From positions 14,425 through 78,424 of IMG/VR virus record IMGVR_UViG_3300017917_003852: a stretch of 64,000 nucleotides of DNA. One strand, 5' to 3'. This stretch comes from a virus. This document shows positions 651 through 53,496 of the stretch, piece by piece (position 1 is the first letter of the stretch; every line of letters begins with the position of its first letter). The notes beneath the pieces are model-generated. The model did not search any database and was not told the DNA's origin. It saw nothing but the letters and a program-made list of their open reading frames with translations. The translations under genes were made by a program, and so were the position numbers.

Positions 651-1247
651 TTAGACAGGATCAGTAAAAACAAGCTCGTTACCGCGCATCATTACGTTCC
701 CTTCGCCTAGATCATTAACTCCGGGCCCGTGGTTAATTAACTCAATAATATTCCATACGGCAACAAGAACTCCGCGATGAGCGCGAGCATATTCAAAGAA
801 AGCAGGATAAGAAGTTTTTAATTTGGAAAAACGTAACTGCATGCCACGGAAGGTTTGTGGCGGCTGTTCTGTGTCGATTGTACATTCGTCGATAAAATAA
901 CCAGCTTCGGTAACTACACGCTCAGCAGGACCAGATAATTCAGCTAGTTTTTCTAAGCGTACTGCTACAACACCAGGAACCACCGGTACAAGTTGGCGGC
1001 TTATGATACGTGGGAAACTAGGGTTATTTTGATTTGCAAAGCAGACACTTAACCAAGCGCGATATGAACTGTCATTCGCATTGAATGTCTTCAAAACATA
1101 ATCTAATTTTGGATGAGCCCATACTGTAGCGAAAGATCCCGACCCTAGCGGACTAAATCCTTGATCGGTTAATACTGTTTTATAATCGTTAGCGGCTAGT
1201 GTTTGCTTAACGCCAACTAATTCTGTTAGTATTTCTTGTATGAGCAT
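651..1247 (-). CDS. protein kinase-like protein with capsid-targeting-like leader
   Basis: LGSGSFATV Gly loop, YVLK, DLGEGN catalytic loop, FTDP. Likely start MLIQEILTE at 1247, 4 nt after TAAATA. Confidence 0.7.
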   Translation of the reverse strand: MLIQEILTELVGVKQTLAANDYKTVLTDQGFSPLGSGSFATVWAHPKLDYVLKTFNANDSSYRAWLSVCFANQNNPSFPRIISRQLVPVVPGVVAVRLEKLAELSGPAERVVTEAGYFIDECTIDTEQPPQTFRGMQLRFSKLKTSYPAFFEYARAHRGVLVAVWNIIELINHGPGVNDLGEGNVMMRGNELVFTDPV

Positions 1248-1289
1248 ACAGTATTTACCTGTTTGGTACCCGGCTGTATGCCCATACAC

Positions 1290-3691: not shown

Positions 3692-4111
3692 TCATCCGGC
3701 ATTCTCCGCTTCAATTGATTCAATTGCTTGGGCAAGATCCGCCCATTTACGTCCTTGGCTATAGATCCAATGGCCGTCGGTCCAAAGATAAAAGTATTCC
3801 GAATCGCTATACCACTGTAGAAACTCTTCGCGGCTATTAAACACCCGCATTTCAACACCGTCTTCGCCGCGATCGCGTCCGTAATACTTGCACCACCCTT
3901 CGGTTTCTTTGTTGTTAAATTCGTGCTTTTCACCGATCTCTGGACCTAGCGAACTAAGATCGCCGTGTGACAGTAGTTGAAAAATCTTGTCAGTCGTTTG
4001 ATAATTCTTGTACAGAATTTCTCCGTTATGTTCAATATAGCCGTCCCAGTGACAATAAATTGCCAGGATCTTGCCGTCTTTTTCCATACCAATTGCTGAA
4101 CGAGTTGCCAT
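3692..4111 (-). CDS. conserved phage hypothetical protein
   Basis: MATRSAIG...IYCHWDGY motif common in phage early genes. Confidence 0.75.
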   Translation of the reverse strand: MATRSAIGMEKDGKILAIYCHWDGYIEHNGEILYKNYQTTDKIFQLLSHGDLSSLGPEIGEKHEFNNKETEGWCKYYGRDRGEDGVEMRVFNSREEFLQWYSDSEYFYLWTDGHWIYSQGRKWADLAQAIESIEAENAG

Positions 4112-4780
4112 TAGTTATCCTTTACGGGGTTGATTAATACATTAAGACGATCTGCACAACGACGAACGTCTTCGCTAAGTTGGCCTCGACCAATCGTTTC
4201 TTCAATTAATCGAGCAACATTGTGAAGTTCAATTACTGCTTCATGTAATTTTTCGTTCATTTTTTGCTTTCGGAAATTTAGCACACCAGATACAACGAGT
4301 TGAGCTTACATCATAAAAGTAAAGTCCGGTATCAGGATATTGGGTACCGCAGCCCGAACACTTGTATGTTAGCATTTCTACCTCATTTTGGTCAATAGGT
4401 CCGTTAAGAGATTCTTGCTGTTTTGGACCAAGTTCGCCAGTAACTGGTTGCGGTTGCATTAGTTATAACCTACCAAATGGTCCTCGGGCTCGAGCATATC
4501 AGCTTCGAGTACAGCATCGTGATAGTTAGTAGCATTTAAAAGAATTACTTGACCTTCGGCAAAGCAAGCCATATAGTTGCCGGTTGCTGAATCTTGTTCT
4601 ACGTTAATAAGAAAGTTAGTCATTCTGCAATCTCCGTGTCGTGATAGAAAAATGCTGCATTAAGATTAGTTTCAAGTACATCAGCCCGTGGCCTATATTC
4701 TTCAACTAGAATGGTAGCCAATTGTTGAAGACTAGCATTAGACAGCATAGCGATTTCGTTAGCAAGAAGTTCAATTTTGG

Positions 4781-4948
4781 TCATAGCTCATCCAAGTTAA
4801 TATCACCAAGTTCTTTGGGTTTGGCTTGAGGCTTGCCCCATGCACTTGCACCTGCGTCTGGGCTACTCTTACCAGCTGGAATTTGTTGAATCTCACCGCC
4901 GTTAGCAAGAAACTCTGCAATGGCCTTTTCGTATTCTTCTTTAGTCAA
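4781..4948 (-). CDS. small protein with SutA-like RNAP-binding motif
   Basis: 55-aa ORF (TTG start, not in ORF track) containing AIAEFLANGGEIQQIP. Confidence 0.45.
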   Translation of the reverse strand: MTKEEYEKAIAEFLANGGEIQQIPAGKSSPDAGASAWGKPQAKPKELGDINLDEL

Positions 4949-5148
4949 TTATGCTCTCCCATAAAAGTCTGCGTCAAGATCGGCTGCGTTATTTGCATAT
5001 TCCTGCGGATCTTCGTCAAAGTCGGATTCTAGAATTTCTAGAACTTGTTTTACACTAAGACCTACTGTGTCGGCGATAGCCTGCAAGGGCATGCCTTGGA
5101 AATCCATTTCGCGGATTTCAATTTCAAGATCCTTAAAGTATCCCATAA

Positions 5149-5373
5149 TTAACCCCAATCTTTCTTGTCACCGTACTGTTCGTTATAGTCATAGCCTGCC
5201 ATATAAGCTTCGTACTCAGCAGAGCCTTCTACAAGAACGACTTTCTCACTTTGGTAAGTGCCACCTACAAAATAATGCGGGCTACGCGGACGGTGGTAAT
5301 AACTATCGGCACTACCACGATCAAAAGCACCACCGTGGCGTGTATCAAACTTGGTTGTATCTACAGTCATCAT
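5149..5373 (-). CDS. conserved phage hypothetical protein
   Basis: RHGGAFDRGSADSYY motif; AAGGAG SD. Confidence 0.7.
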   Translation of the reverse strand: MMTVDTTKFDTRHGGAFDRGSADSYYHRPRSPHYFVGGTYQSEKVVLVEGSAEYEAYMAGYDYNEQYGDKKDWG

Positions 5374-5400
5374 TTTCTCCTTGTTATTCACTATACTGCT

Positions 5401-5429
5401 ATTATAGCAAAATGGGTCTTTTTGGTCAA
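5401..5429 (-). promoter_or_regulatory. early sigma70 promoter, extended -10
   Basis: TTGACC-17-TATAAT with TG extension; 26 bp identical to 9400-9425. Confidence 0.85.
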
Positions 5430-5713
5430 TCACCAGAATCAATTTGATAGCGATCGTTGCAATTTTCGCAAGTATATTCAGTTAAGCAACGACCAACTTT
5501 TTTACTAGAATAGCGATGCCGGCACGGATCTCCGTCTTTATTAAGCGGCACTTCGCCAGTTGGGCGACCGAACATGTATTGCCCGCCGCAGTTAGTACAT
5601 TGGAAAGTATCTGTTTCTCGGTCATAGCCTGCTATGACATTTTTGTATTTGGCATCCCCGGCTGGGACACGGCCCGAACCGTTGCAAACTGGACAAGTAC
5701 CTTTAAGCATCAA
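5426..5713 (-). CDS. Zn-finger protein (DnaJ-like CxxCxGxG)
   Basis: CPVCNGSG, CTNCGG, CENC. Confidence 0.65.
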   Translation of the reverse strand: MMLKGTCPVCNGSGRVPAGDAKYKNVIAGYDRETDTFQCTNCGGQYMFGRPTGEVPLNKDGDPCRHRYSSKKVGRCLTEYTCENCNDRYQIDSGD

Positions 5714-5739
5714 AACTCCTTAACATTCACTATACCAAT

Positions 5740-5797
5740 ATTATAGCAAAATACGGAATTTTGGGCAACCAAAATAAAATGTTGCAAAAAAGCAACA
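5740..5797 (-). promoter_or_regulatory. early promoter plus upstream palindrome
   Basis: TTGCCC-17-TATAAT (5768-5740); TGTTGC-N6-GCAACA at 5780-5797. Confidence 0.8.
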
Positions 5798-5804
5798 AAA
5801 GTTG

Positions 5805-6203
5805 CTAAACATACAACCCTAATTTACGCAACTCTACTACAAAAGCAGGACGCAAATGGGGCTCTACTTCTAGCACATCTTTGCCGCCCATGTCTAATCG
5901 ATCGGCAATATCTTTGGCTTCTTTAAGACCAAGGCGCCTACGGTCGTGCGCCCGTATGCATTTAATAACTGCAACTTTGTTTTGGATAGGGTTTAAGAAA
6001 GGATTCTTTACATGGACCTTATCAGTTTGGTACTTACCAGTTAGCATGGCCATAAACACTTCGCCTTTAAGATCAGGATCAATGGTATCCGCAATAGCAG
6101 TCCAAAGTTCCTGACCTTTTTCTGGCCCGTAGATCTCAGCAACGGTTTGCATGTATGCAATGCTAGCGTCAATGAGCTCTTCCTTGTGTTTTTCTGGTAT
6201 CAT
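5805..6203 (-). CDS. protein with ribosomal bL12 (L7/L12) C-terminal-like domain
   Basis: NKVAVIKCIRA...LGLKEAKDIAD matches the bL12 CTD signature KVxVIKxVR...GLKEAK. Confidence 0.7.
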   Translation of the reverse strand: MIPEKHKEELIDASIAYMQTVAEIYGPEKGQELWTAIADTIDPDLKGEVFMAMLTGKYQTDKVHVKNPFLNPIQNKVAVIKCIRAHDRRRLGLKEAKDIADRLDMGGKDVLEVEPHLRPAFVVELRKLGLYV

Positions 6204-6634
6204 TAGAAATCCAATGTAAATCGACCGGCTGCAATATCTAATAGTATTGCATAACGACTACGAGTACGATAATCGGTTTTAGGCAGATCGTACTCGTAGC
6301 TGTCGGCATAATGCACCTTTCTGACCTTGGTCTTCAAACTTGTAACTTCCCATCTGTTCCAACCATTATCCTCAAAGTTGTATGAGCCAATAACAGTTTT
6401 CAGTTTAAATCTTCGATCAAGATCGTGTTTGGTATCTGCACCAATTGGAATGCAGTTAAAACTACGAACAATTTCCATGTTGGCTAGCTTTTTTTGTTTG
6501 GCTTGCTCACGCTCAATTTTGCCGCCAATGGCCACAAGGTCGCGACCACTTAGACCCATGAGCTGGGCGTAAGCAACAAACTGCTCTAACTGTTCTTTTT
6601 TATCGTCACTGAATCTTTTTAGATCAAAACTCAT
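6203..6634 (-). CDS. hypothetical protein
   Basis: ORF track; likely start MSFDLKRF. Confidence 0.65.
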   Translation of the reverse strand: MSFDLKRFSDDKKEQLEQFVAYAQLMGLSGRDLVAIGGKIEREQAKQKKLANMEIVRSFNCIPIGADTKHDLDRRFKLKTVIGSYNFEDNGWNRWEVTSLKTKVRKVHYADSYEYDLPKTDYRTRSRYAILLDIAAGRFTLDF

Positions 6635-6848
6635 GATAATTCCTATAACCTTTTCGCTTGCTTTGTACAGCAATTTGTTCGAAGTTGGCCCAATCGCAAT
6701 ATGCGTATTCGTTCATATTGGATCTTCCCAACATAATTTCCCATAGGTATCGTTTGTTGTTTTTGGTGACACGAGCCTTGGCGCTAGATTCTAATTTATA
6801 CCAGCCCACTGCTTCTTTTTGTTTCACATTATAAACAACAAAACCCAT
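6624..6848 (-). CDS. hypothetical protein
   Basis: ORF track; packed in the operon. Confidence 0.55.
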   Translation of the reverse strand: MGFVVYNVKQKEAVGWYKLESSAKARVTKNNKRYLWEIMLGRSNMNEYAYCDWANFEQIAVQSKRKGYRNYHEF

Positions 6849-6849
6849 A

Positions 6850-7257
6850 TTATATACTCACCTCAAATTTAAAATCGTCAGGGTCATCCACAAGTTGTGA
6901 TTCCTTAACCTCAGTCCAACGACCATCTATCCTAATTTCTAATTTAATCTTTGTTAGTTCGTTAGCCACAGCACGATCAATTTGATCCATCATTCCTGTT
7001 TTTTTGAGGACTTCAAGTCGGTGCCATTTTTTGAACGTTTCCGTTTCACACATTTTGACAAAGGCGTCTCGTTTGTTTTCCAATTGGTTACGACTAGCTT
7101 CACTATAACCTCTGGCCCCTGAGGCCCTGTGCCGACAATGAACTGCGCTGCTAGTCTTATTTCGCTTCTGCCCACCTGCACCGGTTCCTTTGGTGTATGA
7201 CCAATCACAGTCGTCCTTTGTTACGCTAAACAATAATTGTCTTTTACCGTTTTCCAT
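6850..7257 (-). CDS. RF-1 domain peptidyl-tRNA hydrolase (ArfB/PrfH-like)
   Basis: GTGAGGQKRNKTSSAV GGQ motif followed by SRNQLENK. Confidence 0.85.
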   Translation of the reverse strand: MENGKRQLLFSVTKDDCDWSYTKGTGAGGQKRNKTSSAVHCRHRASGARGYSEASRNQLENKRDAFVKMCETETFKKWHRLEVLKKTGMMDQIDRAVANELTKIKLEIRIDGRWTEVKESQLVDDPDDFKFEVSI

Positions 7258-7505
7258 TATACCCACCTTAATGCAAACTCAATTGCATCACGCTCGTTAA
7301 TAAACTGCCACACAACTTGATAGTCGAACTGATCACAGAAATTTCGGTTAATAATACGATCACGCCACCCACACCGACTGGCTTTTACGCCATGCTTTTC
7401 TTTTAACCAGTCCCACATTTCTACATAATGGTACCAATCTCGTGCAATGGTTGCGATACTGTACCGCCACAGTTTTCGATCTCGTCTTCGTTGTCGGCTG
7501 TTCAT
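7257..7505 (-). CDS. FxLRW-family mini protein
   Basis: Ends WQFINERDAIEFALRWV. Confidence 0.75.
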   Translation of the reverse strand: MNSRQRRRDRKLWRYSIATIARDWYHYVEMWDWLKEKHGVKASRCGWRDRIINRNFCDQFDYQVVWQFINERDAIEFALRWV

Positions 7506-7684
7506 GCCCACCTCAATAAAAATGAGGTTAAATCTTGTTCAGTCTTATACACAATACCAGTGGCATAAACTTCGTAGTTGCCATTTTCATCGCACCAATC
7601 TTGCATTGGATCAATTTGAGCCCAGGAGAGCCAGTCATTAAATCCAATATGGTTATAGCGACGATCAATAGTAAATTTACTCAT
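7502..7684 (-). CDS. FxLRW-family mini protein
   Basis: Ends YKTEQDLTSFLLRWA. Confidence 0.75.
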   Translation of the reverse strand: MSKFTIDRRYNHIGFNDWLSWAQIDPMQDWCDENGNYEVYATGIVYKTEQDLTSFLLRWA

Positions 7685-7902
7685 GCCCATCTCAATGCAA
7701 ACATTGTAGCATCATCTTGATTTTTGAACAACCACGAAGACTTACCAAACGCGGTAATTAACGCCCATTGTTTGTCTTTGTTTGAAGTATATAATCCACC
7801 TTCGCCCAATTGCCTGACACACCAAACTATCATATCCTCAACTTCATGATAGCGATCTCGTTCAAAATGTACCTGAAATGGATGCGTATGATCAACGCTC
7901 AT
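7681..7902 (-). CDS. FxLRW-family mini protein
   Basis: Ends WLFKNQDDATMFALRWA. Confidence 0.75.
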   Translation of the reverse strand: MSVDHTHPFQVHFERDRYHEVEDMIVWCVRQLGEGGLYTSNKDKQWALITAFGKSSWLFKNQDDATMFALRWA

Positions 7903-8117
7903 TACGCCCACTTTAATTGGAATAATACAGCATCTTGTTCGTGTTTAAAATACCATTCGGTTTGTTCCTTTGGGCCATCCAAAAATCCTAGTATATCAAT
8001 ACCTAGCTTGTACCATGCTTCGCCAAAAGGGCCTATGTTTTCTTCGCACCACTCCTGTGCCAATGGCCACTCTGGATTGTTAATTATGATGTGGTACCGC
8101 CACTCTGGATCCATCAT
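7902..8117 (-). CDS. FxLRW-family mini protein
   Basis: Ends WYFKHEQDAVLFQLKWA. Confidence 0.75.
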   Translation of the reverse strand: MMDPEWRYHIIINNPEWPLAQEWCEENIGPFGEAWYKLGIDILGFLDGPKEQTEWYFKHEQDAVLFQLKWA

Positions 8118-8386
8118 GTCTGTTTTTTTAACAAGTCCCAAGCTAATCCATCCCAGGGTTCAAACTCAACATCTATCCACCCAGGGTGGTGCCGCGGTTT
8201 TATTTCCCACCACTCATTTTTGGTATCACGATAAACTGTACGGAACTTGGAGCCATAGTATGATTGAACATATTTTATTACCCGCTCGGCATTGTTTGTA
8301 ATGCTCATAAACGGGCCGCCGAGGTCTTCTAAGAACACTATACCGTGTTCTCGGTCTATGGACAAGACATGCAGTTGTGTTCTCAT
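8114..8386 (-). CDS. conserved phage hypothetical protein
   Basis: SITNNAERV...YRDT motif. Confidence 0.65.
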   Translation of the reverse strand: MRTQLHVLSIDREHGIVFLEDLGGPFMSITNNAERVIKYVQSYYGSKFRTVYRDTKNEWWEIKPRHHPGWIDVEFEPWDGLAWDLLKKQT

Positions 8387-8580
8387 TATTCAATTCCAAA
8401 ATGTTCTGACAGCCATTGCCTTGCTTGAAAACGTGCTATCAATTGATTCTCACCCGGATCTAAAACATTCATACATTCTCGTACAATCAACTCAGCGAAT
8501 TTTTCGTTGTCAAAATGAAGTTGTCCTTCCGGACGCTCGTTCCAGCATTGTTCAGCAAGTAGTTTAATTCTTTCGTTCAT
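8386..8580 (-). CDS. MNERI-family small protein (paralog of 25491-25739)
   Basis: MNERI...IVREC...HFGIE. Confidence 0.7.
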   Translation of the reverse strand: MNERIKLLAEQCWNERPEGQLHFDNEKFAELIVRECMNVLDPGENQLIARFQARQWLSEHFGIE

Positions 8581-8780
8581 TTTGAAAGTACCTTTGCAAG
8601 ATAACTATGGATCTGATCCATTTCTTCCTGTTCAACATAAAAATCGGTCTGTGGATCCCAATACTGTCCGGCTTTAGGATCATAGTATAGCACACGACCA
8701 TCAGCATAAAAGAAAGGACCTTCCAGGCCTTCTCGCGGTTGCCAACGATTGTCACGCTCACCAAGAACAGCATATCCCAT
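8577..8780 (-). CDS. conserved phage hypothetical protein
   Basis: GLEGPF...LYYDPKAGQYWDP. Confidence 0.7.
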   Translation of the reverse strand: MGYAVLGERDNRWQPREGLEGPFFYADGRVLYYDPKAGQYWDPQTDFYVEQEEMDQIHSYLAKVLSK

Positions 8781-9068
8781 GATTATTCCTCTACAATTTG
8801 AGTTTGACGCATATATAGAACAAAGGCAAAAAATACACTGCCTACAATATCAAGCCCATTGTACCTTAGGGCTTGATAACATTCACTATAGGTTGCAATA
8901 CGAGTCATTATTCCACCTCAAATTCTTTATACTTGCGCCATTCCCACTCAGTGGGCTCGACTTCCTCAGACCATACCAGTGCCTTTGCTTCGTCGTCAAA
9001 CACTCTCTCAACATAGTCCCAGAATTCAACACCATTAGTGCAACTTGTAAAACCGATATACACTTTCA

Positions 9069-9786: not shown

Positions 9787-9834
9787 AGTATAACAAAATG
9801 GGCAATTTAGGTCAAGTGTTGTTTTTATGCAACA
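9787..9834 (-). promoter_or_regulatory. early promoter plus palindrome
   Basis: TTGACC-17-TATACT; TGTTGT-N6-GCAACA at 9817-9834. Confidence 0.75.
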
Positions 9835-10190
9835 TGAAAGATAGGATATACTGCATCACTGCCAGGCATGCCGTTCCATACGGTGCGTACAATAAGAATT
9901 TTATGTTGTTCGTGTAGCAGTTGCACGCCTAGTGCTATATGATTGGTATTGTCATACAACCAAAAGTGCTGTCCTGCACCTAGTAGGCGTATTTTGGCTT
10001 TGGCTCGAGGAATTTTTGGAATAACTTCTTGAATTACAAAATCATCAACTTTGCGTTCGTGTGCTTGATCTAGTAAATGTTCGTCCAAGAATAAGGTATA
10101 GTCGCCAACATCTAGCCTCCCCACTACTTCAGGTCTGCGGCTAAAATATCTTACGGCTGTTTGTTTATTATCAAATTCATGAGAACGCAT
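9825..10190 (-). CDS. leader-bearing protein, possible RelE/DUF4258-like RNase fold
   Basis: MRSHEF leader; HLLDQAHER...LIVRTVW; TAAATA 4 nt upstream. Confidence 0.45.
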   Translation of the reverse strand: MRSHEFDNKQTAVRYFSRRPEVVGRLDVGDYTLFLDEHLLDQAHERKVDDFVIQEVIPKIPRAKAKIRLLGAGQHFWLYDNTNHIALGVQLLHEQHKILIVRTVWNGMPGSDAVYPIFHVA

Positions 10191-10193
10191 CAA

Positions 10194-11093
10194 CTATTTA
10201 GTTTTGTATTCTTCAAGAATTTGTTCAAGATCTTCTTGAGTTACTGTAGGAAAAACAATGTTGTAGAAATGCCATATTTTTTTTAGAAAAATTTTGTTAA
10301 ACCCATGATGAAATTCTGTATCGTATGAATTAATTAAAATATTATTTTTCTTTTCTGTATCTTTAACTAATTTGTCCAGTAGCAATTTAAAATTCTGTTC
10401 TTCAAATTTTAACCTACGTAATGCATGCATTATAAAAGATGTTCGAAAATGTAAAACATCTAATTCATTGATTTTAGCTTTTTTTATAAAATTAGTGAAA
10501 TGTGCTAGATGCTTAGATTCTTCTTTAATAAATTCTTTAAAAATTTGTTTTTTAATTGGATTTTTAGTATATCTATAAAACGACATAAATGAAGTAATCA
10601 AATAACTTTCCCCAGTTACTATGTCAGCTAGAAAACCAAATAAAGTTCCGCGATCCCAATTGCTAAGTTCCGACCTAACAAGTTCTTGACAGGTTGGATT
10701 ATAATAGTCAGGTTGATAATTACCGGGCTTTTCTTCCATTTTGTCAATGATAGCCCCAAATAATTCTCGGTGCCGTAATTCGTCGCTAATAATTACTTCA
10801 AAATTTTCTTTAAAAGATTGTAAGTCGGTAGGAGATAAGTGCTTATAATAATGATCTAACTCTCCGTTGTTTAATCTTTCTAAAATAGAATCATAAAAAA
10901 TCGAAGCAGTACTTTCTCCATTAAAACAAAAAATTAACCAACTATTGTAACATGATTTCTCGAATAGTTTTGAGACAGTTGCTGAACTGAGACTATTAAT
11001 CCCAGGAAATAAGTTCTCATGTAATTCAAAAGGATCTTCGGCAGGAAACTCGCATTGATCTATTAGACCAAAAACACATTCAGTATTAGACAT
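10194..11093 (-). CDS. ferritin-like di-iron protein
   Basis: Paired E...ExxH ligands: GES, DELRH, GES, EESKH. Confidence 0.7.
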   Translation of the reverse strand: MSNTECVFGLIDQCEFPAEDPFELHENLFPGINSLSSATVSKLFEKSCYNSWLIFCFNGESTASIFYDSILERLNNGELDHYYKHLSPTDLQSFKENFEVIISDELRHRELFGAIIDKMEEKPGNYQPDYYNPTCQELVRSELSNWDRGTLFGFLADIVTGESYLITSFMSFYRYTKNPIKKQIFKEFIKEESKHLAHFTNFIKKAKINELDVLHFRTSFIMHALRRLKFEEQNFKLLLDKLVKDTEKKNNILINSYDTEFHHGFNKIFLKKIWHFYNIVFPTVTQEDLEQILEEYKTK

Positions 11094-11101
11094 GTAATTA
11101 C

Positions 11102-11305
11102 TTATTTTTTAGAGCGACCGCTCTTCATATTTGCACACCAATGATACATTTTGGCTCGCTCACCACTGGCATTTTTAGCACGTTGGCGTAAATCAGTAAC
11201 GGATCCCGAACAACTAGCACCAGCACGTTTAACGCGACCAGGACGGCTCTTACCTTTGATCTTACCATCGGCAAAGTTTTCTGTAATAAACTCGTATGCT
11301 CTCAT
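11102..11305 (-). CDS. small basic putative virion internal protein
   Basis: MRAYEFITE leader. Confidence 0.7.
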   Translation of the reverse strand: MRAYEFITENFADGKIKGKSRPGRVKRAGASCSGSVTDLRQRAKNASGERAKMYHWCANMKSGRSKK

Positions 11306-12387
11306 GAGCGTAACCACAATACAAAGGGATCATTTACTACAATAGTTCCATCAGCTCTCTGCATATAATTTCCACCGTGTAAATCTATTGCGAATCCTTG
11401 ATCCCTACCAAACTTTGCAACTGTATGAACAGTATCTAATAAATTTTTAGTATTCACTGGCCCACCTAGATATTTAATAACTTTCTTTACGGTGTATGGA
11501 TCAATTGTGCGTTTAACTTCGTTGTAATATTCTCTGCGAGCCAGATCTTTAAGAGCTTGATTAAAGTCGCCATTGGCCATATGATCTATTGCTAGATCTA
11601 TATAACCGACTAAATGCTTTACTTGATCTGGTAATTCTTTTAAAGGTTCCATTCTAGCTTGAATGTAATTCTTACCACCAAATTGAAAACTTTCAAATCC
11701 TGAAAATTTTGGTAAATGCGGATTATCTGTGTTTGCATTACAGTAATCAATCCAATTTATGAACATACGCTGGTCGGGACTAAAATCTTTATGACCTTTA
11801 CGATAGCCAAATATGATCAATACTTGTCCAGTACCTGGCTCTAAGTATGCTTGTTTGTCGATGCCACTACCTAAGTATTTGTAACCTTTATCCATTAATA
11901 CTTTACGAACACCGCCGTGTATTTCTCCGGCCATTTCATCAATCGTATTCCATGCACCCGTAGATTTATCTAATACCTCAGCATCACCAGTGCGTCCTGC
12001 GGTCCAACGTGGTAATTTTTCTTGTGGAATTCTAACTTGTGCATTAGTTGGAATATCCTTCCAAGGGCGCCCAAAATAACCTTCAGCGTCTCCTTGGCTC
12101 CAATATTTTGTATCTGTGTCCCAAGTAGTTTTTCCAGGATTAGGATTTTTTTCAAAATAACCTGATTTTTTAGCTGCCGCTAACTCTTCTGGACTCATGT
12201 TTCTATATACATGAGTTACATCGTCGGGACTTCCAGGTACTCGACCGCCGAACATTCCGCCCTTGGGTTGATCAATATAATTTTTTACCTTAGGGGCCTG
12301 ACCCGCTGCATAATCAACAGCATCCTTACCTAGTTTCCATAACCAGGACCGTAGTCCGCCTTCATCTAAAAAATCATCTGCTCTCAT
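11302..12387 (-). CDS. leader-bearing fusion: ART-like domain plus kinase-like domain
   Basis: MRADDFLDE; HVYRNMSPEE...YWS; YLGSGIDK, DLHGGNYM, VNDPF. Confidence 0.6.
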   Translation of the reverse strand: MRADDFLDEGGLRSWLWKLGKDAVDYAAGQAPKVKNYIDQPKGGMFGGRVPGSPDDVTHVYRNMSPEELAAAKKSGYFEKNPNPGKTTWDTDTKYWSQGDAEGYFGRPWKDIPTNAQVRIPQEKLPRWTAGRTGDAEVLDKSTGAWNTIDEMAGEIHGGVRKVLMDKGYKYLGSGIDKQAYLEPGTGQVLIIFGYRKGHKDFSPDQRMFINWIDYCNANTDNPHLPKFSGFESFQFGGKNYIQARMEPLKELPDQVKHLVGYIDLAIDHMANGDFNQALKDLARREYYNEVKRTIDPYTVKKVIKYLGGPVNTKNLLDTVHTVAKFGRDQGFAIDLHGGNYMQRADGTIVVNDPFVLWLRS

Positions 12388-15299
12388 CTTGCTGGCACAA
12401 TCGTAAATGGACCGCGATCTCTAACATCGCGAGGTGCAGTAGTGGTCATCCACTGTCTTGCATATTGGTTAGCGTCGCCTTGGTTTGTGGTGTTAATAAA
12501 CGAATACACTTCTTGATCGTTACGATCTAATATTAACCAACGTGCATTACCCGGTGGCAAGCTACCTGTACCTTGTGCTTGATTTACCGGCTCAGCTTCG
12601 ATGTTTCTAATGTAATAACCATTGGCGTCTAATTGCCTACGCACATAGTCCATAGCAGCATTGGAATTCGCTGCTGACACAGTTACATTAGTAGTTCTAC
12701 CATCTGTTCCAGTGTAAGTTACACGATATCGTTCTTGCCCAACACTACCAGCTGGAACCGGTTCTCCTGTTGTTGCTGGTATTGCACGTTGTCTTGCAAG
12801 TTCTGCACTGCTACCGGGAATACCTCTACCCTCTATACGACGCCAACCATAAGTTTCTGTATCATCATCTATACCGCGTCCTGCTAACCAATCAGAATAT
12901 TTTCTCGATGCTTCTTGATCTGTATTGGCAATAAATCTAAACACAGGACGATATGGTACTGTACTACGATCTACGATTTCGTAATTAGCGTCAGAACTTT
13001 GTTCGCCACCAACCGCAGGGAAGTCACGCCCTGCACTAGCAGGTTGGCCACTAAGTAAGTATGCACGATTTTGTTCCATGTCGATGATACGAATATCTTC
13101 GCGAGGAATTCCGCGTCTATTCCTTATATTATCTGCTATAGTTTGAATATAAGTCCATGTGCCTTGCTGCCCAGGAAGTAATACTTCACCGTCGTAATTA
13201 TTAATGATAGAATAAATTGCCGGACCTGGTCTATTGGTGCTGCCGGATTCTCTTGATCGCATCTGTGGGCGAACATAAACAGGATCATCAAATCCTGTTT
13301 GCTCTTGCCATCTTGCAGCATGACGCTCGGCGTCGGCAACCAAATTACCAATACCACTTATAGTATGAACAACTTCATTAGAGTTTCTACTTACTACTTC
13401 CCAAGTGCCGGTAAATTCTTGATCTTGGCTTCTTGGTGTTTGCTGTGTATGTCTTTCTACGCGAATGTCAGCAAATGGCACATAGGAGAATCTACCTGGA
13501 TGTTCCATAGTCGCTATTTGTCGTGCCGCATAGTCTGATGTGGCACGAACTACTACTCCGCGTTCTCTGTCGTGTTCAGGATAAACCAAATAGTCTCGTG
13601 CATTAGAATCTGGCTCATTCGCTTCAATTGACGCAATTTCTAATTCAGTAGCTGGTCGTTGAGGTACTGCACGCCATCCTCGTGTAAATTCTTCCACGGA
13701 TCGTCCTGCAATGTTCAGACTCCACTTTAATATAGCACGAGCTTTAGCTTGTTCGGGACTGGTAGCAATGACTTCGGTACCTTGGCTTTGGTAAGGCGAG
13801 TCTGGAGAACCAAACACCATCCAAACAAATGGTACATCTAAGTTTGCATCGCCTTGTTGTTTTCCAATTTGTCGCTTCTGCTGAATTTGTCGAACAAAAC
13901 TCTTTAGTGCTTGCTTAGGCAATTCACCAGCTGCATATTTGGCAAAGTATTGAATACTATCATCTTCTTTGCCTTGTGTTAAAGTCTTATATAACTTTTT
14001 GTAATATTCTTGTTTATATTCTTCGGGCTTGGTAGCAACATCTAATGCCACCACAGCTCGCAATAGTGTGTTCTTAACATTACCTATACTGCCGCTACCG
14101 CTCATCCAGTCTCCGCCCGGACCTCGGAATTCAATCCACTTGTCACGATTATTAATACTGGTAAATTTCTCTGTTGATCCGGTGTGTAGTATTTTGCTGG
14201 CTAATTGATTAAGACCACCTTGGAACTGTCTCATCATTTCTTCAACACGATCTGGATTGTTTCGTGCTTGCAACACAATTTTCTTTAGCGCAGATTTACA
14301 GTAAGTATTACCTTCACGACCAAATTGTTCAAGAACGTAATTGTCGCCTAAGAACATGGCCAACTTTACATAATCAAGATTCTGTTGATTAGGAACGCTA
14401 ACATTCATATGTAAGCCGGTGCTGTCATTAGTATAAGCACCTACTCTATTAGCCCACTTTATCACCTTATCTATATCCGACAGCATTTCGGGAACGGTCA
14501 ATGGAGGACTAACGAACTCTAAGCCAGACTCACCATCGTCACCGTGTAAGCTACCATCAGGTTCTACTACATAATGCCCAGGTCGTCTTGTGGCACCATG
14601 ATAGCTAGATGCAGAATTCACCGGACGATCTATTGCATTACTAAAATCATCAGCTATGTCATCGATGCTAGTTCCACCGCCACCATAATAGTCTGGCTCG
14701 GTCCAATATGGCCATTCTAGATCATATTCGTTAGCAAAGCTTGACATATATTCTATGTCTTCCTCTTCTAGATATTCTACAAATCGATCGTCGGCTTCGT
14801 CATTAAATTCATCTAATAGCTGCTCGCGAATATCGTCTTCGTGTTCGTCGATGTATGCTCGAAGAGCGATTTCATATTCTTCAGTGGTGTCGTAATCGCC
14901 TTCACTTACATATTCTGTGGCAATTTCCAGTGCTCGCTCATTCCCAGAGTCAGAATCCATCCACTCGTTGAACTTTTCATCCATCCAGCCCCAGAAGTTT
15001 TCATTGAGTTCATCAATTTTTCTTTGGATCACCCCGGTGCTGCTGCCCATCGAGCCGCCACGGAAGAAACTAATGACATCTCTCGCCCACCCGGGTCCAG
15101 TAGGAAAACTCTCATCATACTCGTAGTCAGGTTCAGATTCAAACTCATCTTCTTCATCACCAAAATAATTCGGAACAATCAATTCAAATTCCATGCCTAC
15201 TCGAGCATCAATATTTGCTGCCATTTTTGTTAAATTAGTTGGGCTCATATTAAGCTCAAATAATTCATCTTCACTTAAATTAAATTCGCGATATCTCAT
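12384..15299 (-). CDS. putative amidoligase (COOH-NH2 ligase) with C-terminal repeats
   Basis: GMEFE, EPDGSL, GLEFVSPPL, STGLHMNVS, IEFRGPG; MRYREFNLSE leader. Confidence 0.8.
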   Translation of the reverse strand: MRYREFNLSEDELFELNMSPTNLTKMAANIDARVGMEFELIVPNYFGDEEDEFESEPDYEYDESFPTGPGWARDVISFFRGGSMGSSTGVIQRKIDELNENFWGWMDEKFNEWMDSDSGNERALEIATEYVSEGDYDTTEEYEIALRAYIDEHEDDIREQLLDEFNDEADDRFVEYLEEEDIEYMSSFANEYDLEWPYWTEPDYYGGGGTSIDDIADDFSNAIDRPVNSASSYHGATRRPGHYVVEPDGSLHGDDGESGLEFVSPPLTVPEMLSDIDKVIKWANRVGAYTNDSTGLHMNVSVPNQQNLDYVKLAMFLGDNYVLEQFGREGNTYCKSALKKIVLQARNNPDRVEEMMRQFQGGLNQLASKILHTGSTEKFTSINNRDKWIEFRGPGGDWMSGSGSIGNVKNTLLRAVVALDVATKPEEYKQEYYKKLYKTLTQGKEDDSIQYFAKYAAGELPKQALKSFVRQIQQKRQIGKQQGDANLDVPFVWMVFGSPDSPYQSQGTEVIATSPEQAKARAILKWSLNIAGRSVEEFTRGWRAVPQRPATELEIASIEANEPDSNARDYLVYPEHDRERGVVVRATSDYAARQIATMEHPGRFSYVPFADIRVERHTQQTPRSQDQEFTGTWEVVSRNSNEVVHTISGIGNLVADAERHAARWQEQTGFDDPVYVRPQMRSRESGSTNRPGPAIYSIINNYDGEVLLPGQQGTWTYIQTIADNIRNRRGIPREDIRIIDMEQNRAYLLSGQPASAGRDFPAVGGEQSSDANYEIVDRSTVPYRPVFRFIANTDQEASRKYSDWLAGRGIDDDTETYGWRRIEGRGIPGSSAELARQRAIPATTGEPVPAGSVGQERYRVTYTGTDGRTTNVTVSAANSNAAMDYVRRQLDANGYYIRNIEAEPVNQAQGTGSLPPGNARWLILDRNDQEVYSFINTTNQGDANQYARQWMTTTAPRDVRDRGPFTIVPAR

Positions 15300-16654
15300 T
15301 CTATAATCTCTGGATGTTCTTTGCCGTATAATTTCATCAGGTAGCCGGCTACGGCATCGGCTTCTTGTTCTATAGGTGATCCCGGATAACTTTGGTCACC
15401 ATGCACACGACGATCCTCGTGTTGCTTACGATGTGTTAATTCATGTGCCACGGTACGCATTATGTCAATCATGTTTCTGTTACCAGTGTAAATCCACATG
15501 ATATCTTCTGCATCGTCATAGTATCCAGTACGATGTTGATCTGGTCCTTCCTTAGCATCCTGGAATCTAATTTGAGGAAGTTCTTGTTTAATCTTTAATT
15601 TTTTTACGCACCAGTGAATAAAGTCACGTAATTGTTCTTCATGATCACGGAATGTGCTTTCTGTTAAATTATCAGCACGAGTGAATGTATCTACTATTTT
15701 ATAATGCTTGGGTCCTACTAATTCAAAGTCATACTTGTCATCGTCATCTATATTAAAAGGACGAAGAAAATGCTTTGTCTTACGCTTAATTGCTAACGCA
15801 CCGTTAGGAGTAAATCCTGTTTGCTCGAGGTCTGCACGATAAACTCTACCCATCGCACCAATTACCGCTAAATCAACTTTATAACCTTGCTTCAACAATC
15901 TATCAGTAATGGTAACAATCTGGCTGATTCCTTCACCATCATCACCATCCCGGTCGTCTAAGAATTCATTAACCTGTGTTTCCGCCACACCTTGCTCACC
16001 GTGACGAATACTACCGTCCTTCATCAACTTTAAGTTGAGATTGTATTGTTTATTGTCGTGCTTGACTTTGTTCATACGACCTGCTTTGAAGCCTTTGGCA
16101 AAGTATTGTTTATACATTCCATCGTGTTGGGTGTGCCAATAGTTTATCTTCATAGCTCGTTCTAATGTTGCACCATCAGCAAGACTTACGCCTTTAGTGA
16201 AACCATCCTCTTGTGCCATCTTGGCAATTTCTGGACTAAATCCTTCATCGTCATCATCACCGTTGAGTCCATCTGGAGCGAATTCGTTTAACTGTGCATT
16301 GAAAATTAACTCCGCAAGTCTAAGAGCATTGTCTCTAGTTTTTGGAATAGCTACACCGGCTTTGCGGCCTCTGCCGAATCCTTGTTCATAATCAAGCAAA
16401 TGAATATTAACAGTAGGGTATTCACCTTGACGACCAACTACACTGTAAAGCATTGCACCATTGCGAGATTTGTCTTTTGGTTCAAACTTCACACTAACTT
16501 GTTCAGGTTTTTCTCTATCCTGTCTTGTATATCCACGACCTAAATATTGCTCTATAATATCAGCAAATTCAGTTAGTGGAAAAGAGTCAGGATCGTCTCT
16601 GCCACTATCACCGTTGGTGTCTAAAAATTCCCTTAAAAAATCACTTGCTCGCAT
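15296..16654 (-). CDS. modular putative virion protein with C-terminal zincin metallopeptidase
   Basis: MRASDFLRE leader; RTVAHELTH...EQEAD. Confidence 0.7.
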   Translation of the reverse strand: MRASDFLREFLDTNGDSGRDDPDSFPLTEFADIIEQYLGRGYTRQDREKPEQVSVKFEPKDKSRNGAMLYSVVGRQGEYPTVNIHLLDYEQGFGRGRKAGVAIPKTRDNALRLAELIFNAQLNEFAPDGLNGDDDDEGFSPEIAKMAQEDGFTKGVSLADGATLERAMKINYWHTQHDGMYKQYFAKGFKAGRMNKVKHDNKQYNLNLKLMKDGSIRHGEQGVAETQVNEFLDDRDGDDGEGISQIVTITDRLLKQGYKVDLAVIGAMGRVYRADLEQTGFTPNGALAIKRKTKHFLRPFNIDDDDKYDFELVGPKHYKIVDTFTRADNLTESTFRDHEEQLRDFIHWCVKKLKIKQELPQIRFQDAKEGPDQHRTGYYDDAEDIMWIYTGNRNMIDIMRTVAHELTHRKQHEDRRVHGDQSYPGSPIEQEADAVAGYLMKLYGKEHPEIIE

Positions 16655-17531
16655 TTCTTTTTGCCTTTTCTTGGTCGTCTTGACCTTTTAAGTATTTGTT
16701 AAATTGATTTGCTATAAATTCATTTTTTTTACGTTCTGCATCGGTAACTGTATCAGCAGCCATCCTAGCACTACTCATTACACCAGATCTAATCGCTGGA
16801 TCTAGCGCAGCGGTTCTCAATGATTTATCTGTTAAACGATCTAGAATACTAGTAAAGCTTGGTTGTCCTCTTGGTATTTTAGTAGGAACCTGGGCGCCAA
16901 CATTTCCTCCAATGTCAGAAATAGGTCGCGGACTCATTGAGTAACCTCTATTTACAAACTTATTAGACAAATCAGCATATTTGCTACTAGCTTGTCTATA
17001 AGCAGCCGGTCCGCCAAATTGCTGTATTTCTTTATCTATATTGCTATAGCTAGGAGGTTCCATTCCGTATTCTTTTCTAAAGGCTTTAGCAGCATGAAAC
17101 TTTGCTGTTCCTTCTTCGCGACCGATATTTTTAGCAGTTAAAGGATTATATGGATGTGGCTTATTAGCAAGATCGTATCCTATATCTTTAATTTTACCAA
17201 CAGTATCTTTAGCAAGTTCCGGTGCAACTGTAGCTGATTTTGCTGCTGCATCTGCTGCTGTTCTTGTACCTACATTCCTTGCTAATCCTGTAACACCTTG
17301 AACTACTTTTTTACCTAAACCAGCAAAAGGAAATAAAATATCTTCGGGACTGATTAAGGGTGCTTCTAATCCAGGCTCGATAGGCCAACCTCGTTCATCT
17401 CTAGGTAACGTAACATTTTTACCGCGGTTTTCCGCCGATGGCACATACCCTTGTGGCATCCAGTCCTTTTGTAACTCTTTTCTTGCAGCCTCTACATCGT
17501 CGGCTTCATTTATAAATTCATGAGCTCGCAT
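16641..17531 (-). CDS. putative virion internal protein
   Basis: MRAHEFINE leader (start 17531). Confidence 0.65.
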   Translation of the reverse strand: MRAHEFINEADDVEAARKELQKDWMPQGYVPSAENRGKNVTLPRDERGWPIEPGLEAPLISPEDILFPFAGLGKKVVQGVTGLARNVGTRTAADAAAKSATVAPELAKDTVGKIKDIGYDLANKPHPYNPLTAKNIGREEGTAKFHAAKAFRKEYGMEPPSYSNIDKEIQQFGGPAAYRQASSKYADLSNKFVNRGYSMSPRPISDIGGNVGAQVPTKIPRGQPSFTSILDRLTDKSLRTAALDPAIRSGVMSSARMAADTVTDAERKKNEFIANQFNKYLKGQDDQEKAKRNASK

Positions 17532-18171
17532 TGTCTTTATCCTGTGGCCCGGCAATCATCTTGCCGTAGTCTTTACTCTGTATATTCTGTGGTTCGTGCT
17601 CACGCTGTCCTTTTAATATTTCAAAAGCTCGACGTAATCCACGGGCCACCGTATCTAGGCCATTTTCATCTGCTTGATACTTAATACCAATACCTCCCGA
17701 TTGTTCCCATTCGGTAATTACAGTATTACGATCATCAACTAGTATATTCGGCGTGCCGTCGGCTTGTTTAGCGTATTTTCCCTTGCGGGGAGTAATAATA
17801 ATTTTATTAGGCTGTGGATCTAGGTTTTCAGCAATCCAAGCACGTTTCATTGCTTCGCTGTTTTTGTGATCACCACGTAATGGGCTAGAGCAAATATTGT
17901 AAGATCCAAATACTTGTACGGCCATTGCTACTAATCTATCAGCTGATGCAAATTTAGGCAGTCTATAGAAGAAATCTGTACCAACCATTTGTTGTATAAC
18001 GGGCTCACGCTTTTCTGGTGGAATAGCGTGATAATCGTATCTTCCTTGTGTGTTAGGTGGTACTCCAGCTAATTTTGCATATTCTGCAAAGAAATCAGCT
18101 AATACACCGTCCATATCTAAGAATATTTCTGGACGTCCGTGAGATTGTTGTTCTAGTTCAAATAAGCGCAT
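17518..18171 (-). CDS. HAD 5'(3')-deoxyribonucleotidase family
   Basis: IFLDMDGVLADF, CSSP, K...ILVDD; MRLFELE leader. Confidence 0.85.
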   Translation of the reverse strand: MRLFELEQQSHGRPEIFLDMDGVLADFFAEYAKLAGVPPNTQGRYDYHAIPPEKREPVIQQMVGTDFFYRLPKFASADRLVAMAVQVFGSYNICSSPLRGDHKNSEAMKRAWIAENLDPQPNKIIITPRKGKYAKQADGTPNILVDDRNTVITEWEQSGGIGIKYQADENGLDTVARGLRRAFEILKGQREHEPQNIQSKDYGKMIAGPQDKDNASS

Positions 18172-18175
18172 TTTG

Positions 18176-18181
18176 TATTTA
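18176..18181 (-). promoter_or_regulatory. late-type promoter TAAATA (leaderless operon start)
   Basis: CAATAAATA-CAAA-ATG; same geometry at 1252, 2219, 10195, 51246, 53502. Confidence 0.7.
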
Positions 18182-31366: not shown

Positions 31367-31710
31367 GCTATCCAGCCTTGTCCGGTTATCTGATGATACC
31401 AGGGATAAAACGGTCCGACTACAATAAACTGCCAATCGCTAGTTATCCATGCGGTCGCCGGATTGGCAAGATGTTGGTACTTGGGTAGCACTTCGTGCCC
31501 GTTTATTGTTATTTTTGCAACTTCTACTGCACCGTTGCTAATCTTACAACTAAAGTTTAACCCTTCTAGTAAATCAAAATACATTGTTGATTTTACCGGC
31601 TGATTATTCACTGTAAAATGATATTTTGGATTATGGTGCTCAACTAAATGAATCTTTACTTCAATTTGATTAGCTGTATCAATATCCGTAATGTCTAAGA
31701 AATTTTTCAT
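31363..31710 (-). CDS. hypothetical protein
   Basis: ORF overlapping the radical SAM 3' end. Confidence 0.6.
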   Translation of the reverse strand: MKNFLDITDIDTANQIEVKIHLVEHHNPKYHFTVNNQPVKSTMYFDLLEGLNFSCKISNGAVEVAKITINGHEVLPKYQHLANPATAWITSDWQFIVVGPFYPWYHQITGQGWIA

Positions 31711-32989
31711 ATCTTGGTGCATAATCTAAAATGGAATTTCCCCGCAGGGATTCAAACGCTTTTAAAAAGGATATTAAATTGTATCTTAATTCCTCGACAT
31801 TTTTTGGTACGTTATAGTCGCAAATAAATTGATAGTAATCTAGTATAATGTTTGCAGTAGCCTGGTCAATTTGATTAGTTTGTCTGACATTAACTAAATT
31901 TTCTTTAGTAAGTCGATATTTTTTAATTAATGTTTGTAATTTTTCTTTAATCTCTTGACGTATGTCTTCGGGCATTATTTCCATGCGAAGCCACTCGGGT
32001 CTATACAGTATATTACAACTTTCTGATATTACTTTATTGTTAATCATAAACTCAAATAATTTATCTAATTCGTATATAGAAAAAATATTAGGTGTAATTC
32101 GTAAAGAAATAACTAGTCCGGAATTCTCTTTTCTTAGTTGTAAAAAATTATCTATGTTCGACAGTATTTCTGTAATTTGTCCAGGCCAGCGTATATAATC
32201 GTTAATAGGATCTACAGATTCTATACTAATACCTAAATGAAATTGTTCAAAATGTCCTATTAGATTATGGATTCGTTGATTATATATTGTGCCATTTGTT
32301 GTGGTGCCAACAATTATATCTTTAGCTAAATCATGCTCAATTAATTTTTCACAGATAGTATAAAATGCTTCTTCGTATAATGTTTCTCCTCCTAAGAAAT
32401 GTATATAACGAAGATTAGGAATTTCTTTTAGTTCTTCAATGAATTGATTTATTAATGTTTGGTCCTTAGTCCAAGATTCAATTTTTTCAGGTTTCAAAAA
32501 TAATTTAGAATTTATTTTGTGTAGCTTATGAAATTCTTGTTCTAGTTTGCTGCTTGCTTCGGGTCTGCACATTATACAAGCACTATTACATGTATTACCT
32601 AGTTCAACTTGTAATTCAACTGGCGCTAAATTTGCTTCACCGTTATTATTAAAACTATATTCAAAGTTTTTGTAATGCGGACTGCTTCTAAAAGTTTTTA
32701 GAAAGTCATTTGTATCAACAGCACTTTTATTAAGTTGTCTCATACGTCCGTTTAACTTACCAAAACTTTCTTCATAATAACAAATGGAACAATGATTAGG
32801 TTCTTCGCCGGCCAATAACTGTTGGCGAAGAATTTTCATCTGATCGCTGTTGTAATATTGCATTATCGATTGATTACTAAACGAATGGAGCCGTTGTGGA
32901 TTTTTAGCCCAACTACATGACTCAAAACTTCCGTCGTAGGTAAGTCTCACGTGGAACCACGGACTAGAACAAAAAGTTTTTTCAAACAT
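31679..32989 (-). CDS. radical SAM protein with N-terminal twitch/SPASM-like Cys cluster
   Basis: CNSACIMC (CxxxCxxC), FLGGE, TTNGT; N-terminal FCSSPW...CSIC. Confidence 0.9.
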   Translation of the reverse strand: MFEKTFCSSPWFHVRLTYDGSFESCSWAKNPQRLHSFSNQSIMQYYNSDQMKILRQQLLAGEEPNHCSICYYEESFGKLNGRMRQLNKSAVDTNDFLKTFRSSPHYKNFEYSFNNNGEANLAPVELQVELGNTCNSACIMCRPEASSKLEQEFHKLHKINSKLFLKPEKIESWTKDQTLINQFIEELKEIPNLRYIHFLGGETLYEEAFYTICEKLIEHDLAKDIIVGTTTNGTIYNQRIHNLIGHFEQFHLGISIESVDPINDYIRWPGQITEILSNIDNFLQLRKENSGLVISLRITPNIFSIYELDKLFEFMINNKVISESCNILYRPEWLRMEIMPEDIRQEIKEKLQTLIKKYRLTKENLVNVRQTNQIDQATANIILDYYQFICDYNVPKNVEELRYNLISFLKAFESLRGNSILDYAPRYEKFLRHYGY

Positions 32990-53193: not shown

Positions 53194-53496
53194 TTATTTC
53201 CTTGCTTGCCAATCTGGGAACATACTAATACTATCTGCTCTGATATCTGCTGGGTTTTTACTGTAGTGTACATCGTCGCCCGCCGGAAATGCTGCGCCCA
53301 CAGGTGCTATAATTGTGTTAGGCTCGTTAGCAAACTCGGGTTCTTCTACATTTAGAATACCAGCTAGACGCTGCATGTCCATAATTTGCTCTTGGGGTTC
53401 AACTTCTACTGCAATAGCCATAACAGGCTCTGCTGCTGGCTCTTCTGCATGGTCTATAATATCTAATACGCTGCGTATAATATCGGTGATCTTCAT
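53194..53496 (-). CDS. putative head-associated protein
   Basis: MKITDII leader, MQRLAGI motif; TAAATA 5 nt upstream. Confidence 0.6.
   Translation of the reverse strand: MKITDIIRSVLDIIDHAEEPAAEPVMAIAVEVEPQEQIMDMQRLAGILNVEEPEFANEPNTIIAPVGAAFPAGDDVHYSKNPADIRADSISMFPDWQARK

Follow-up and report, generated by a model that had tools for sequence, protein, structure and literature searches.

A portable nine-residue leader resembling the T4 capsid targeting sequence in a predicted late gene array of an uncultured giant phage

The leader array

The DNA considered here is a stretch of 64,000 nucleotides (positions 14,425 to 78,424 of the IMG/VR virus record IMGVR_UViG_3300017917_003852), to which we refer as the window and which is part of a 78-kb IMG/VR contig with a completeness rating of 20%. 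On its minus strand, from position 18171 down to 9825, the window carries a run of overlap-coupled genes behind a T4-type late-promoter motif, TAAATA, and the predicted products of these genes begin with a common short leader. This leader, which resembles the capsid targeting sequence of phage T4, and the proteins that carry it are the subject of the present analysis.

Six consecutive genes follow a single TAAATA, as an earlier note on this DNA had described. The N-termini that it quoted are borne out at the minus-strand positions listed in Table 1, and successive genes between 18171 and 11102 overlap by 14, 14, 4, 4 and 4 nt. Five N-termini of the array, from MRAHEFINE to MRAYEFITE in the order of the table, represent the leader itself, and two, MRLFELE and MRSHEFD, are looser forms. 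The motif stands 4 nt before the ATG in three genes, namely in the first gene of the array, in the gene of the 121-aa protein at the far end of it and in the outlying gene at 651-1247; the latter two indeed possess TAAATA motifs of their own, as had been noted. Counting the variants, the single array of the window contains up to 6-8 copies of the leader. A sigma-70-like promoter at 9815-9787 opens the next unit after the array.

Table 1. Genes and promoter motifs of the leader array and its outlying members (window coordinates).
Feature	Position	Strand	Protein start	Match or remark
TAAATA late-promoter-like motif	18176..18181	-		lies 4 nt ahead of the array's first ATG
217-aa 5'(3')-deoxyribonucleotidase	17518..18171	-	MRLFELEQQ	phrog_2643, E 7.8e-21
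296-aa basic protein (pI 9.4)	16641..17531	-	MRAHEFINE	no fold assigned
452-aa protein, C-terminal HExxH zincin-like domain (residues ~316-452)	15296..16654	-	MRASDFLRE	weak zincin-family matches
971-aa protein, Amidoligase_2 at residues 209-397, long C-terminal half	12384..15299	-	MRYREFNLSE	PF12224, E 1.7e-10; 10-residue form of the leader ending L-S-E
361-aa protein, N-terminal domain and C-terminal protein-kinase-like domain (~156-356)	11302..12387	-	MRADDFLDE	phrog_15752, 3.6e-8
67-aa very basic protein (pI 10.6)	11102..11305	-	MRAYEFITE	clusters with basic leader proteins of relatives
299-aa ferritin/rubrerythrin-like protein	10194..11093	-	no leader	PF02915, 6.4e-6; outside the tagged set
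Second TAAATA	10195..10200	-		overlaps the stop codon of the inserted ferritin-like gene; 4 nt before the ATG of the 121-aa gene
121-aa protein	9825..10190	-	MRSHEFDNK	weakly RelE/BECR-like fold
TAAATA of the 198-aa kinase-like gene	1252-1257	-		own motif of 651-1247
198-aa kinase-like protein	651..1247	-	MLIQEILTE	phrog_15752, 4.6e-10; PSSM score 15.6; leader variant ending L-T-E
100-aa acidic protein	53194..53496	-	MKITDIIRS	own TAAATA at -11; possible further leader variant

Sequence and statistics of the leader

The consensus of the leader is M-R-A-x-E/D-F-I/L-x-E, and it is located at the start codon of the primary product. A strict form of it, defined by the regular expression MRxx[ED][FL]x(1-3)E, has five matches in the 78-kb contig, all of them gene starts and all in the array, against a mean of 0.15 in shuffles. 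A position-specific scoring matrix (PSSM) was built from the leaders and used to score gene starts and internal Met residues. In the contig and in one complete relative, it separates the leader starts from all other gene starts and internal Met residues, and no internal Met in the contig scores above -0.5. The earlier note had suggested a leader-profile scan of the genome and its relatives as a check. In the contig, the strict expression returned array starts only, and a degenerate DNA pattern for MRAxEFITE found at least 120 stretches in IMG/VR, whereas the reversed pattern found none.

The logo of the leader was derived from the best 120 homologues of the 361-aa protein, which were retrieved via the kinase body of this protein and not via its leader. 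The leader is present in 106 of the 120 homologues, where it precedes 55 distinct post-leader sequences, and the logo reads, in percent, M91 R93 A91 x E/D100 F93 I/L77 x E91. Position 7 is I in 44%, L in 33% and V in 7% of the sequences; position 9 is E in 91% and D in 9%. The information content drops from ~3.9 to ~1 bit past position 9, right at the Glu after which cleavage is predicted. In 11% of the homologues residue 10 is a Met (e.g. MRAHDFTAE followed by MAGEIHGG), so that the leader stands ahead of a native start. One kinase homologue is entirely devoid of the leader.

An (L/I)-x-E site is present in five genes of the array and in 651-1247. It is absent in MRSHEFDNK, in which the first half of the leader is kept and the I-x-E half is missing, and this form, MR[SA]H[ED]F[DA]NK, is conserved in 16 of 16 homologue clusters. 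By the rules of T4, such a protein would be loaded but not cut. In MRLFELE the site is limited to L-F-E at residues 3-5. By comparison with the N-terminal extensions of nucleotidase homologues, this start is a divergent version of the leader. These homologues come in two forms, a core-only one that starts with MKKPEVYLDMDGV and an extended one with 14-20 additional residues, and the extended starts run from canonical leaders (MRANEFIIE and MRIQELITE), with MRFRDLINE also among them, to MRLFELEQQ of the window.

Two further groups of candidates were set aside. The earlier note had listed the gene at 61832-62275 as a looser match, but its N-terminus does not fit, its PSSM score is low and it lies in a nucleotide-metabolism block beside the small subunit of ribonucleotide reductase. 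A looser class of starts, M-x-[LI]-x-E-[LM] (MRLFELE, MDLKELD and MKLFEMF, the last from a head-module protein of the relative G001 described below), was not relied on, because short matches of this kind occur by chance, as the start of T4 lysozyme (MNIFEML) demonstrates.

Late-promoter motifs, head genes and lineage

A search with the 452-aa protein led to a related contig of 352 kb with a completeness rating of 100%, which we call G001. It encodes a protease of the Peptidase_S77 family, to which T4 gp21 belongs (E 9e-28), within a T4-like block that comprises the portal, a small protein, an acidic core protein, the protease and a coiled-coil scaffold. The T4 core genes for gp23, gp20, gp17, gp18 and replication proteins are present as well. 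Peptidase_S77 was found in seven of the seven large leader-bearing related contigs, including five beyond the first ones tested, and a scaffold-like coiled-coil gene is also present in them. Among cultured phages, the closest proteases to that of G001 are those of Sinorhizobium phage Phosso, Pseudomonas phage PA5oct, a Vibrio jumbo phage and Atu_ph07 (53-61% identity). The sole leader-like start in PA5oct, MKINDIITE, belongs to gp333, a head-module protein whose record carries the flag ESI-MS/MS and which is homologous to a head-module protein of G001. The source of the window is an uncultured giant phage that is distantly related to T4 and belongs to a clade of phages with genomes of ~340-350 kb.

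In G001, TAAATA starts 10-12 nt before the ATG in 41 of 459 genes, where ~1 is expected, and these include the gene that opens the head module. In the 78-kb contig the motif is found at the fixed spacing before the ATG in 8 of 142 genes. The sequence GATAAATACTAT is located ahead of the leader operons of G001, and homologues of the late sigma factor of T4, gp55, are encoded in all three complete relatives tested. From these promoter motifs and gp55 homologues we infer that the leader genes are expressed late. In many genes of the window and of G001 (L015-L033), the motif, in the form (A)TAAATA, lies at a set distance of 4-6 nt from the ATG, and a Shine-Dalgarno sequence is usually absent. This arrangement implies that, in contrast to T4, the late mRNAs have little or no untranslated leader.

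Portability of the leader and breadth of its cargo

The first 80 of the at least 120 IMG/VR loci contain 140 open reading frames (ORFs) with the leader, which fall into ~25 body clusters once the leader is removed. Complete genomes have 4-6 strict leader genes each, and the reversed control has none. The proposal that a portable tag is attached to diverse enzymes is upheld by these relatives and by the tagged kinase homologues described above, some homologues being untagged. The related statement that the bodies are unrelated and share only a leader of ~10 residues is right for most of the set, given the number of body clusters and the end of conservation at residue 9. An exception is the kinase-like domain, as the copy in the C-terminal half of the 361-aa protein is a paralogue of the 198-aa protein.

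The kinase occurs in the architectures leader-kinase, leader-HicA-kinase, leader-DUF6934-kinase and leader-GNAT-kinase. Pfam searches with the leader cargo gave ADPrib_exo_Tox (9.5e-13), GNAT, HicA, GH19 and LysM+SLT, as well as weak matches that include Kinase-PolyVal. A genuine ADP-ribosyltransferase (ART) with the leader is found in one relative (L088:6640-7242). The GH19 and SLT proteins are cell-wall hydrolases, and some of them have a signal of the twin-arginine translocation (Tat) type directly behind the leader. This signal, (D/I)(L/D)xRRGFL..., was seen in L109:413-1297:+, L057:2992-3612:+, L108:6261-6890:- and L004:10678-11295:+, one of which has LysM and SLT transglycosylase domains. 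A Tat signal behind the leader could be the second step of a two-step address, first to the head and then to the periplasm of the next host, or it could mark a lysin exported late in infection.

That the tag is an add-on follows from untagged homologues such as the core-only nucleotidases and the zincin homologue of cyanophage S-SRM01, which lacks the leader and lies among replication genes. The cargo is also fused in various ways. In one ORF of L004 (11295-12626:+), the nucleotidase has an MRASEF start and is fused to the 121-aa RelE-like domain and to a basic tail that is homologous to the 67-aa basic protein, and another (4108-8895:+) encodes a 1595-aa zincin-amidoligase fusion. Such fusions link the cargo proteins into a single functional guild. 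Fusions of the nucleotidase with DUF3920 occur among the database homologues.

The commonest leader family, with 78 of 133 complete ORFs, consists of proteins of ~125 aa (G001 102342-103108, which equals L020:7342-8108:+, and most of L055-L134). Its genes usually form a tandem pair and its proteins have the conserved end SP(I/V)KPFKGYKK, the AAAGGA codons of which also provide the following gene with its ribosome-binding site. Searches with tblastn found no homologue of this family and no match to the kinase module in cultured phages, and the DNA of the array has no near-identity match in them either. Hence, there is no published virion proteome with which the cargo could be compared directly.

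Proteins of the array and outlying members

The nucleotidase and amidoligase assignments of the earlier note agree with the PHROG and Pfam matches in Table 1. The metallopeptidase assignment of the 452-aa protein is sustained by the HExxH motif, which is invariant in 10 of 10 leader-bearing zincin homologues, whereas the family matches themselves are weak (DUF3920 at 2.7e-4, M78 and MPTase-PolyVal). Many related contigs encode the middle domain of this protein (residues 122-231; window 15962-16291) with an identity of 73-92%. In G001 this domain sits within a 714-aa protein with an HxGH-type motif at its N-terminus, which suggests a cytidylyltransferase-like enzyme. The middle domain is a mobile domain. 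A close relative (93% identity) has a different gene order and lacks residues 126-327 of the 452-aa protein.

The orthologue of the 971-aa protein in G001 is 39% identical and has a canonical start, MRALDFILE. By eye, the C-terminal half of the window's protein (12384-13860) appears to consist of ~7 divergent beta-beta-alpha repeats of 40-50 residues with the pattern ...YxV...V.F.A.[ST]..EA...A..W; self-BLAST detected no repeats in it.

Structure prediction of the cargo, which had also been suggested, was carried out for the 361-, 121- and 296-aa proteins with uneven success. The C-terminal domain of the 361-aa protein has an AF2 model with a pLDDT of 80-94, all its top Foldseek matches in the PDB are kinase or APH folds (E ~2e-4) and the motif DLHxGN...ND is conserved in the alignment of the kinase-like domain. 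The kinase part of the earlier "ART-like/kinase" label is therefore retained. The ART part is not, as the N-terminal domain has no ART match and no Pfam match up to E = 1, and its residues 10-150 have a pLDDT below 50. The 198-aa protein clusters with leader-bearing kinases of the relatives.

The 121-aa protein, formerly described as RNase-like, has an AF2 model with a pLDDT of 87. Its top three structural matches in the entire PDB are RelE toxins, but with a Z of only 5.2-5.3, and they are followed by CdiA-CT, ParE, HigB and T4 RegB. The Foldseek E-value is ~0.07 and the Atlas lead, DUF4258, has a score of 0.86. The models thus suggest a RelE-like protein, and the likeness is a weak one. PDB sequence searches with the 361-aa and 121-aa proteins gave chance-level matches only. 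The same is true of the 296-aa protein, which has no match in Pfam, PHROG or the PDB, whose Atlas model is of low confidence and for which the Atlas search yielded no usable lead.

The ferritin-like gene has a GC content of 0.289, far below the 0.39-0.44 of its neighbours, and so looks like an insertion that interrupts the array. In G001, a gene that looks Dps-like, judged by its N-terminus alone, is located just upstream of the leader operon (194429-194869). The 100-aa protein is homologous from residue 1 to a protein of a relative that starts MRATDFIRG (E 9e-16). Its gene is near two genes with virion-structural PHROG matches (49473-51239 and 51305-52954).

Interpretation of the leader

In T4, a targeting sequence directs proteins into the head, a principle that is established for this phage (PMC3012670, PMC9026906). 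The protease gp21 cuts after L/I-x-E, and residues 4 and 7 of the T4 tag serve targeting and residues 8 and 10 processing (PMC9026906). The T4 internal proteins IPII and IPIII start with MKTYQEFIAE, and the starts of gp24 (MAKINELLRE) and Alt (MELITELFDE) are alike. The hypothetical T4 protein gp61.1 (NC_000866 18966-19130) starts with MKTFKEFIKE, which is very near the targeting sequence of IPII and IPIII.

The nine-residue leader is probably a capsid targeting sequence of this T4 type, by which the enzymes would be packed into the head and injected with the DNA. The likeness on which the earlier note had built this idea stands: the E-F-I-x-E core is shared, a gp21 site, (L/I)-x-E, lies at the end of the leader and the sequence-level tests all agree. 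The leader with its statistics, its portability, its late-promoter context and the protease, scaffold and sigma factor of the relatives were all observed directly in the sequences. The predicted cargo is also of the types to be expected of injected proteins for host takeover or anti-defence.

The putative course of events is as follows. The leader genes would be transcribed late from T4-like TAAATA promoters by means of a gp55-like sigma factor, and the leader would dock each protein on the scaffolding core during prohead assembly. A gp21-type prohead protease would then cut after the final Glu (P3 I/L, P1 E) and release the mature protein inside the head. At the next infection, the cargo would exit with the DNA and act on the host before any phage gene is expressed. 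For the window, this cargo would comprise a deoxyribonucleotidase, a zincin-like peptidase, an amidoligase, two kinase-like proteins, a RelE-like small protein and basic proteins, to which the relatives would add ADP-ribosyltransferase, GNAT and HicA domains.

A broader proposal is evenly balanced in our judgment. According to it, a widespread uncultured clade of ~350-kb phages has turned the capsid targeting sequence of T4 into a general nine-residue label, which recombination can put on any gene. The injected set of kinases, ART, GNAT, RelE/HicA-type RNases, zincins, amidoligase and nucleotidase would then be readable from the sequence, and some of the cargo would bear a Tat signal as a second address, to the periplasm of the new host.

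Several observations weigh against head packaging. The window's own 78-kb contig, 20% complete as it is, contains no head genes, and the prohead protease is deduced from relatives. No cultured phage in the searched collection has these cargo proteins, and the strict leader gene or DNA pattern has no occurrence in PA5oct, Vibrio phage 2.275.O, 121Q, CBB or Atu_ph07. The tagged GH19 and SLT hydrolases are odd for head proteins and might just as well be lysis proteins that are exported late. Moreover, a loose match to the motif is not diagnostic; T4 lysozyme, which has such a form, is not known to be a head protein.

These hydrolases also bear on an explanation that we consider unlikely, in which the leader serves another late process, as a propeptide or a recognition tag, and the proteins act in the producing cell with no packaging at all. 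Toxic enzymes might be kept inactive until a protease of the phage or the host removes the leader, or the leader might dock a chaperone or unfoldase. Cargo such as the HicA-like and RelE-like proteins, the kinases, the ART and the zincin is potentially toxic to the producer, and tagged cell-wall hydrolases with Tat signals would suit late lysis. T4, however, handles toxic cargo by packaging it. Moreover, the tag matches the targeting core of T4, the matching protease accompanies it in all seven large relatives, and the one protein of PA5oct with a similar N-terminus is a virion protein of the head module.

The shared start could also be kept by a constraint on the DNA or on translation, as the initiation region of nearly leaderless late mRNAs or as a site of gene-swap recombination. 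The promoters of late genes in the clade often stand 4-6 nt from the ATG with no Shine-Dalgarno sequence, the 27-nt DNA of the leader is fairly uniform (ATGAGAGCA...GAATTTAT...GAA) and whole genes have been swapped at leader junctions between close relatives. However, all synonymous codons are used at the conserved residues (Ala: GCA 69, GCC 32, GCT 27, GCG 9; Glu: GAA 83, GAG 55; Ile: ATC 43, ATA 40, ATT 28), codons 4 and 8 are wholly free, and such free synonymous variation argues for selection on the peptide. The leader is missing from most late genes that have this promoter and 57 of 140 leader genes are preceded by a Shine-Dalgarno-like sequence, while recombination at the leader is compatible with a targeting function and no substitute for it. 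This makes an explanation at the DNA level improbable. Even less credible is a role of the leader as the recognition sequence of a radical-SAM/SPASM maturase. One such gene is present in the window (31679-32989), G001 has 13 paralogues in one 20-kb cluster (56-76 kb) and 12 of 91 leader loci contain one. In two relatives, the leader precedes small Cys-rich peptides of 71-74 aa (L126:7435-7650:- and L083:2778-3002:+), that of L126 being encoded immediately upstream of such an enzyme. Yet no leader gene of G001 lies within 26 kb of the cluster, the co-occurrence of 13% compares with ~8% estimated by chance for loci of this size and a 20-kb cluster, and the enzyme of the window lies among apparent sugar-metabolism genes (judged by N-termini alone). 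The leader also lacks the typical substrate pattern of Cys, Ser or Thr.

If the leader works as a capsid targeting sequence in the manner of T4, it is a marker, recognizable in sequence, of proteins that are delivered into the cell ahead of the genome. Host takeover and counter-defence begin with such proteins, whose discovery normally depends on a cultured phage and the proteomics of its virions. Hundreds of proteins of uncultured giant phages would then be marked, and pre-made kinases, acetyltransferases, ADP-ribosyltransferases, RNase-like toxins and peptidases would be among their injected tools. The leader also suggests itself as a compact portable tag with which foreign proteins could be loaded into the heads of large phages.

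Comparison with known systems

The Dar antirestriction proteins of phage P1 are internal to the head, are injected and depend on their N-terminal regions for loading. They differ from the proteins described here in that their loading is ordered and protein-dependent, with no short shared leader and no motif for a T4-type protease.

In the giant phages phiKZ, 201phi2-1 and SPN3US, the head takes up many proteins, which a distant homologue of gp21 trims after Glu (PMC9026906). The present clade would be similar in loading many proteins. Unlike its leader, the sites in these phages are S/A-x-E in longer propeptides, with no portable nine-residue tag, and the phages belong to an unrelated lineage with virion RNA polymerases.

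A related vocabulary of kinase, zincin peptidase, ART and GNAT domains is found in the polyvalent proteins of phages and conjugative elements described by Iyer, Aravind and co-workers, whose domains are delivered with the DNA (cited in PMC7824862). The weak Kinase-PolyVal and MPTase-PolyVal matches and the 1595-aa fusion of a relative point in the same direction. The PolyVal matches are below the Pfam threshold, so membership among the polyvalent proteins is not established by them. The clade differs in that its domains are mostly encoded by separate genes, each with a tag of its own, and not joined in one giant polypeptide.

The closest counterpart is the capsid targeting sequence of T4 itself. 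Both sequences have the E-F-I-x-E core in register and the (L/I)-x-E end, and F7 of T4, the targeting aromatic residue, corresponds to the leader F that is present in 93% of the homologues. In both cases unrelated proteins, predicted to be late ones in the clade, carry the tag, and the clade has a gp21-type protease, a gp22-like scaffold and late promoters of the TATAAATA type. Small basic proteins and an ART are among the cargo of the clade, and the packaged Alt protein of T4 is an ADP-ribosyltransferase. The tag of the clade has nine residues instead of ten, however, and M-R-A replaces M-K-T-Y. There are 4-6 strict copies per genome. The predicted cargo, in contrast to the small inhibitors of T4, consists mostly of enzymes and of fusions of two domains, among them kinase, GNAT, HicA, zincin, amidoligase and nucleotidase. 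The principle itself is already known from T4, and what sets the present case apart is its scale and its enzyme-rich cargo.

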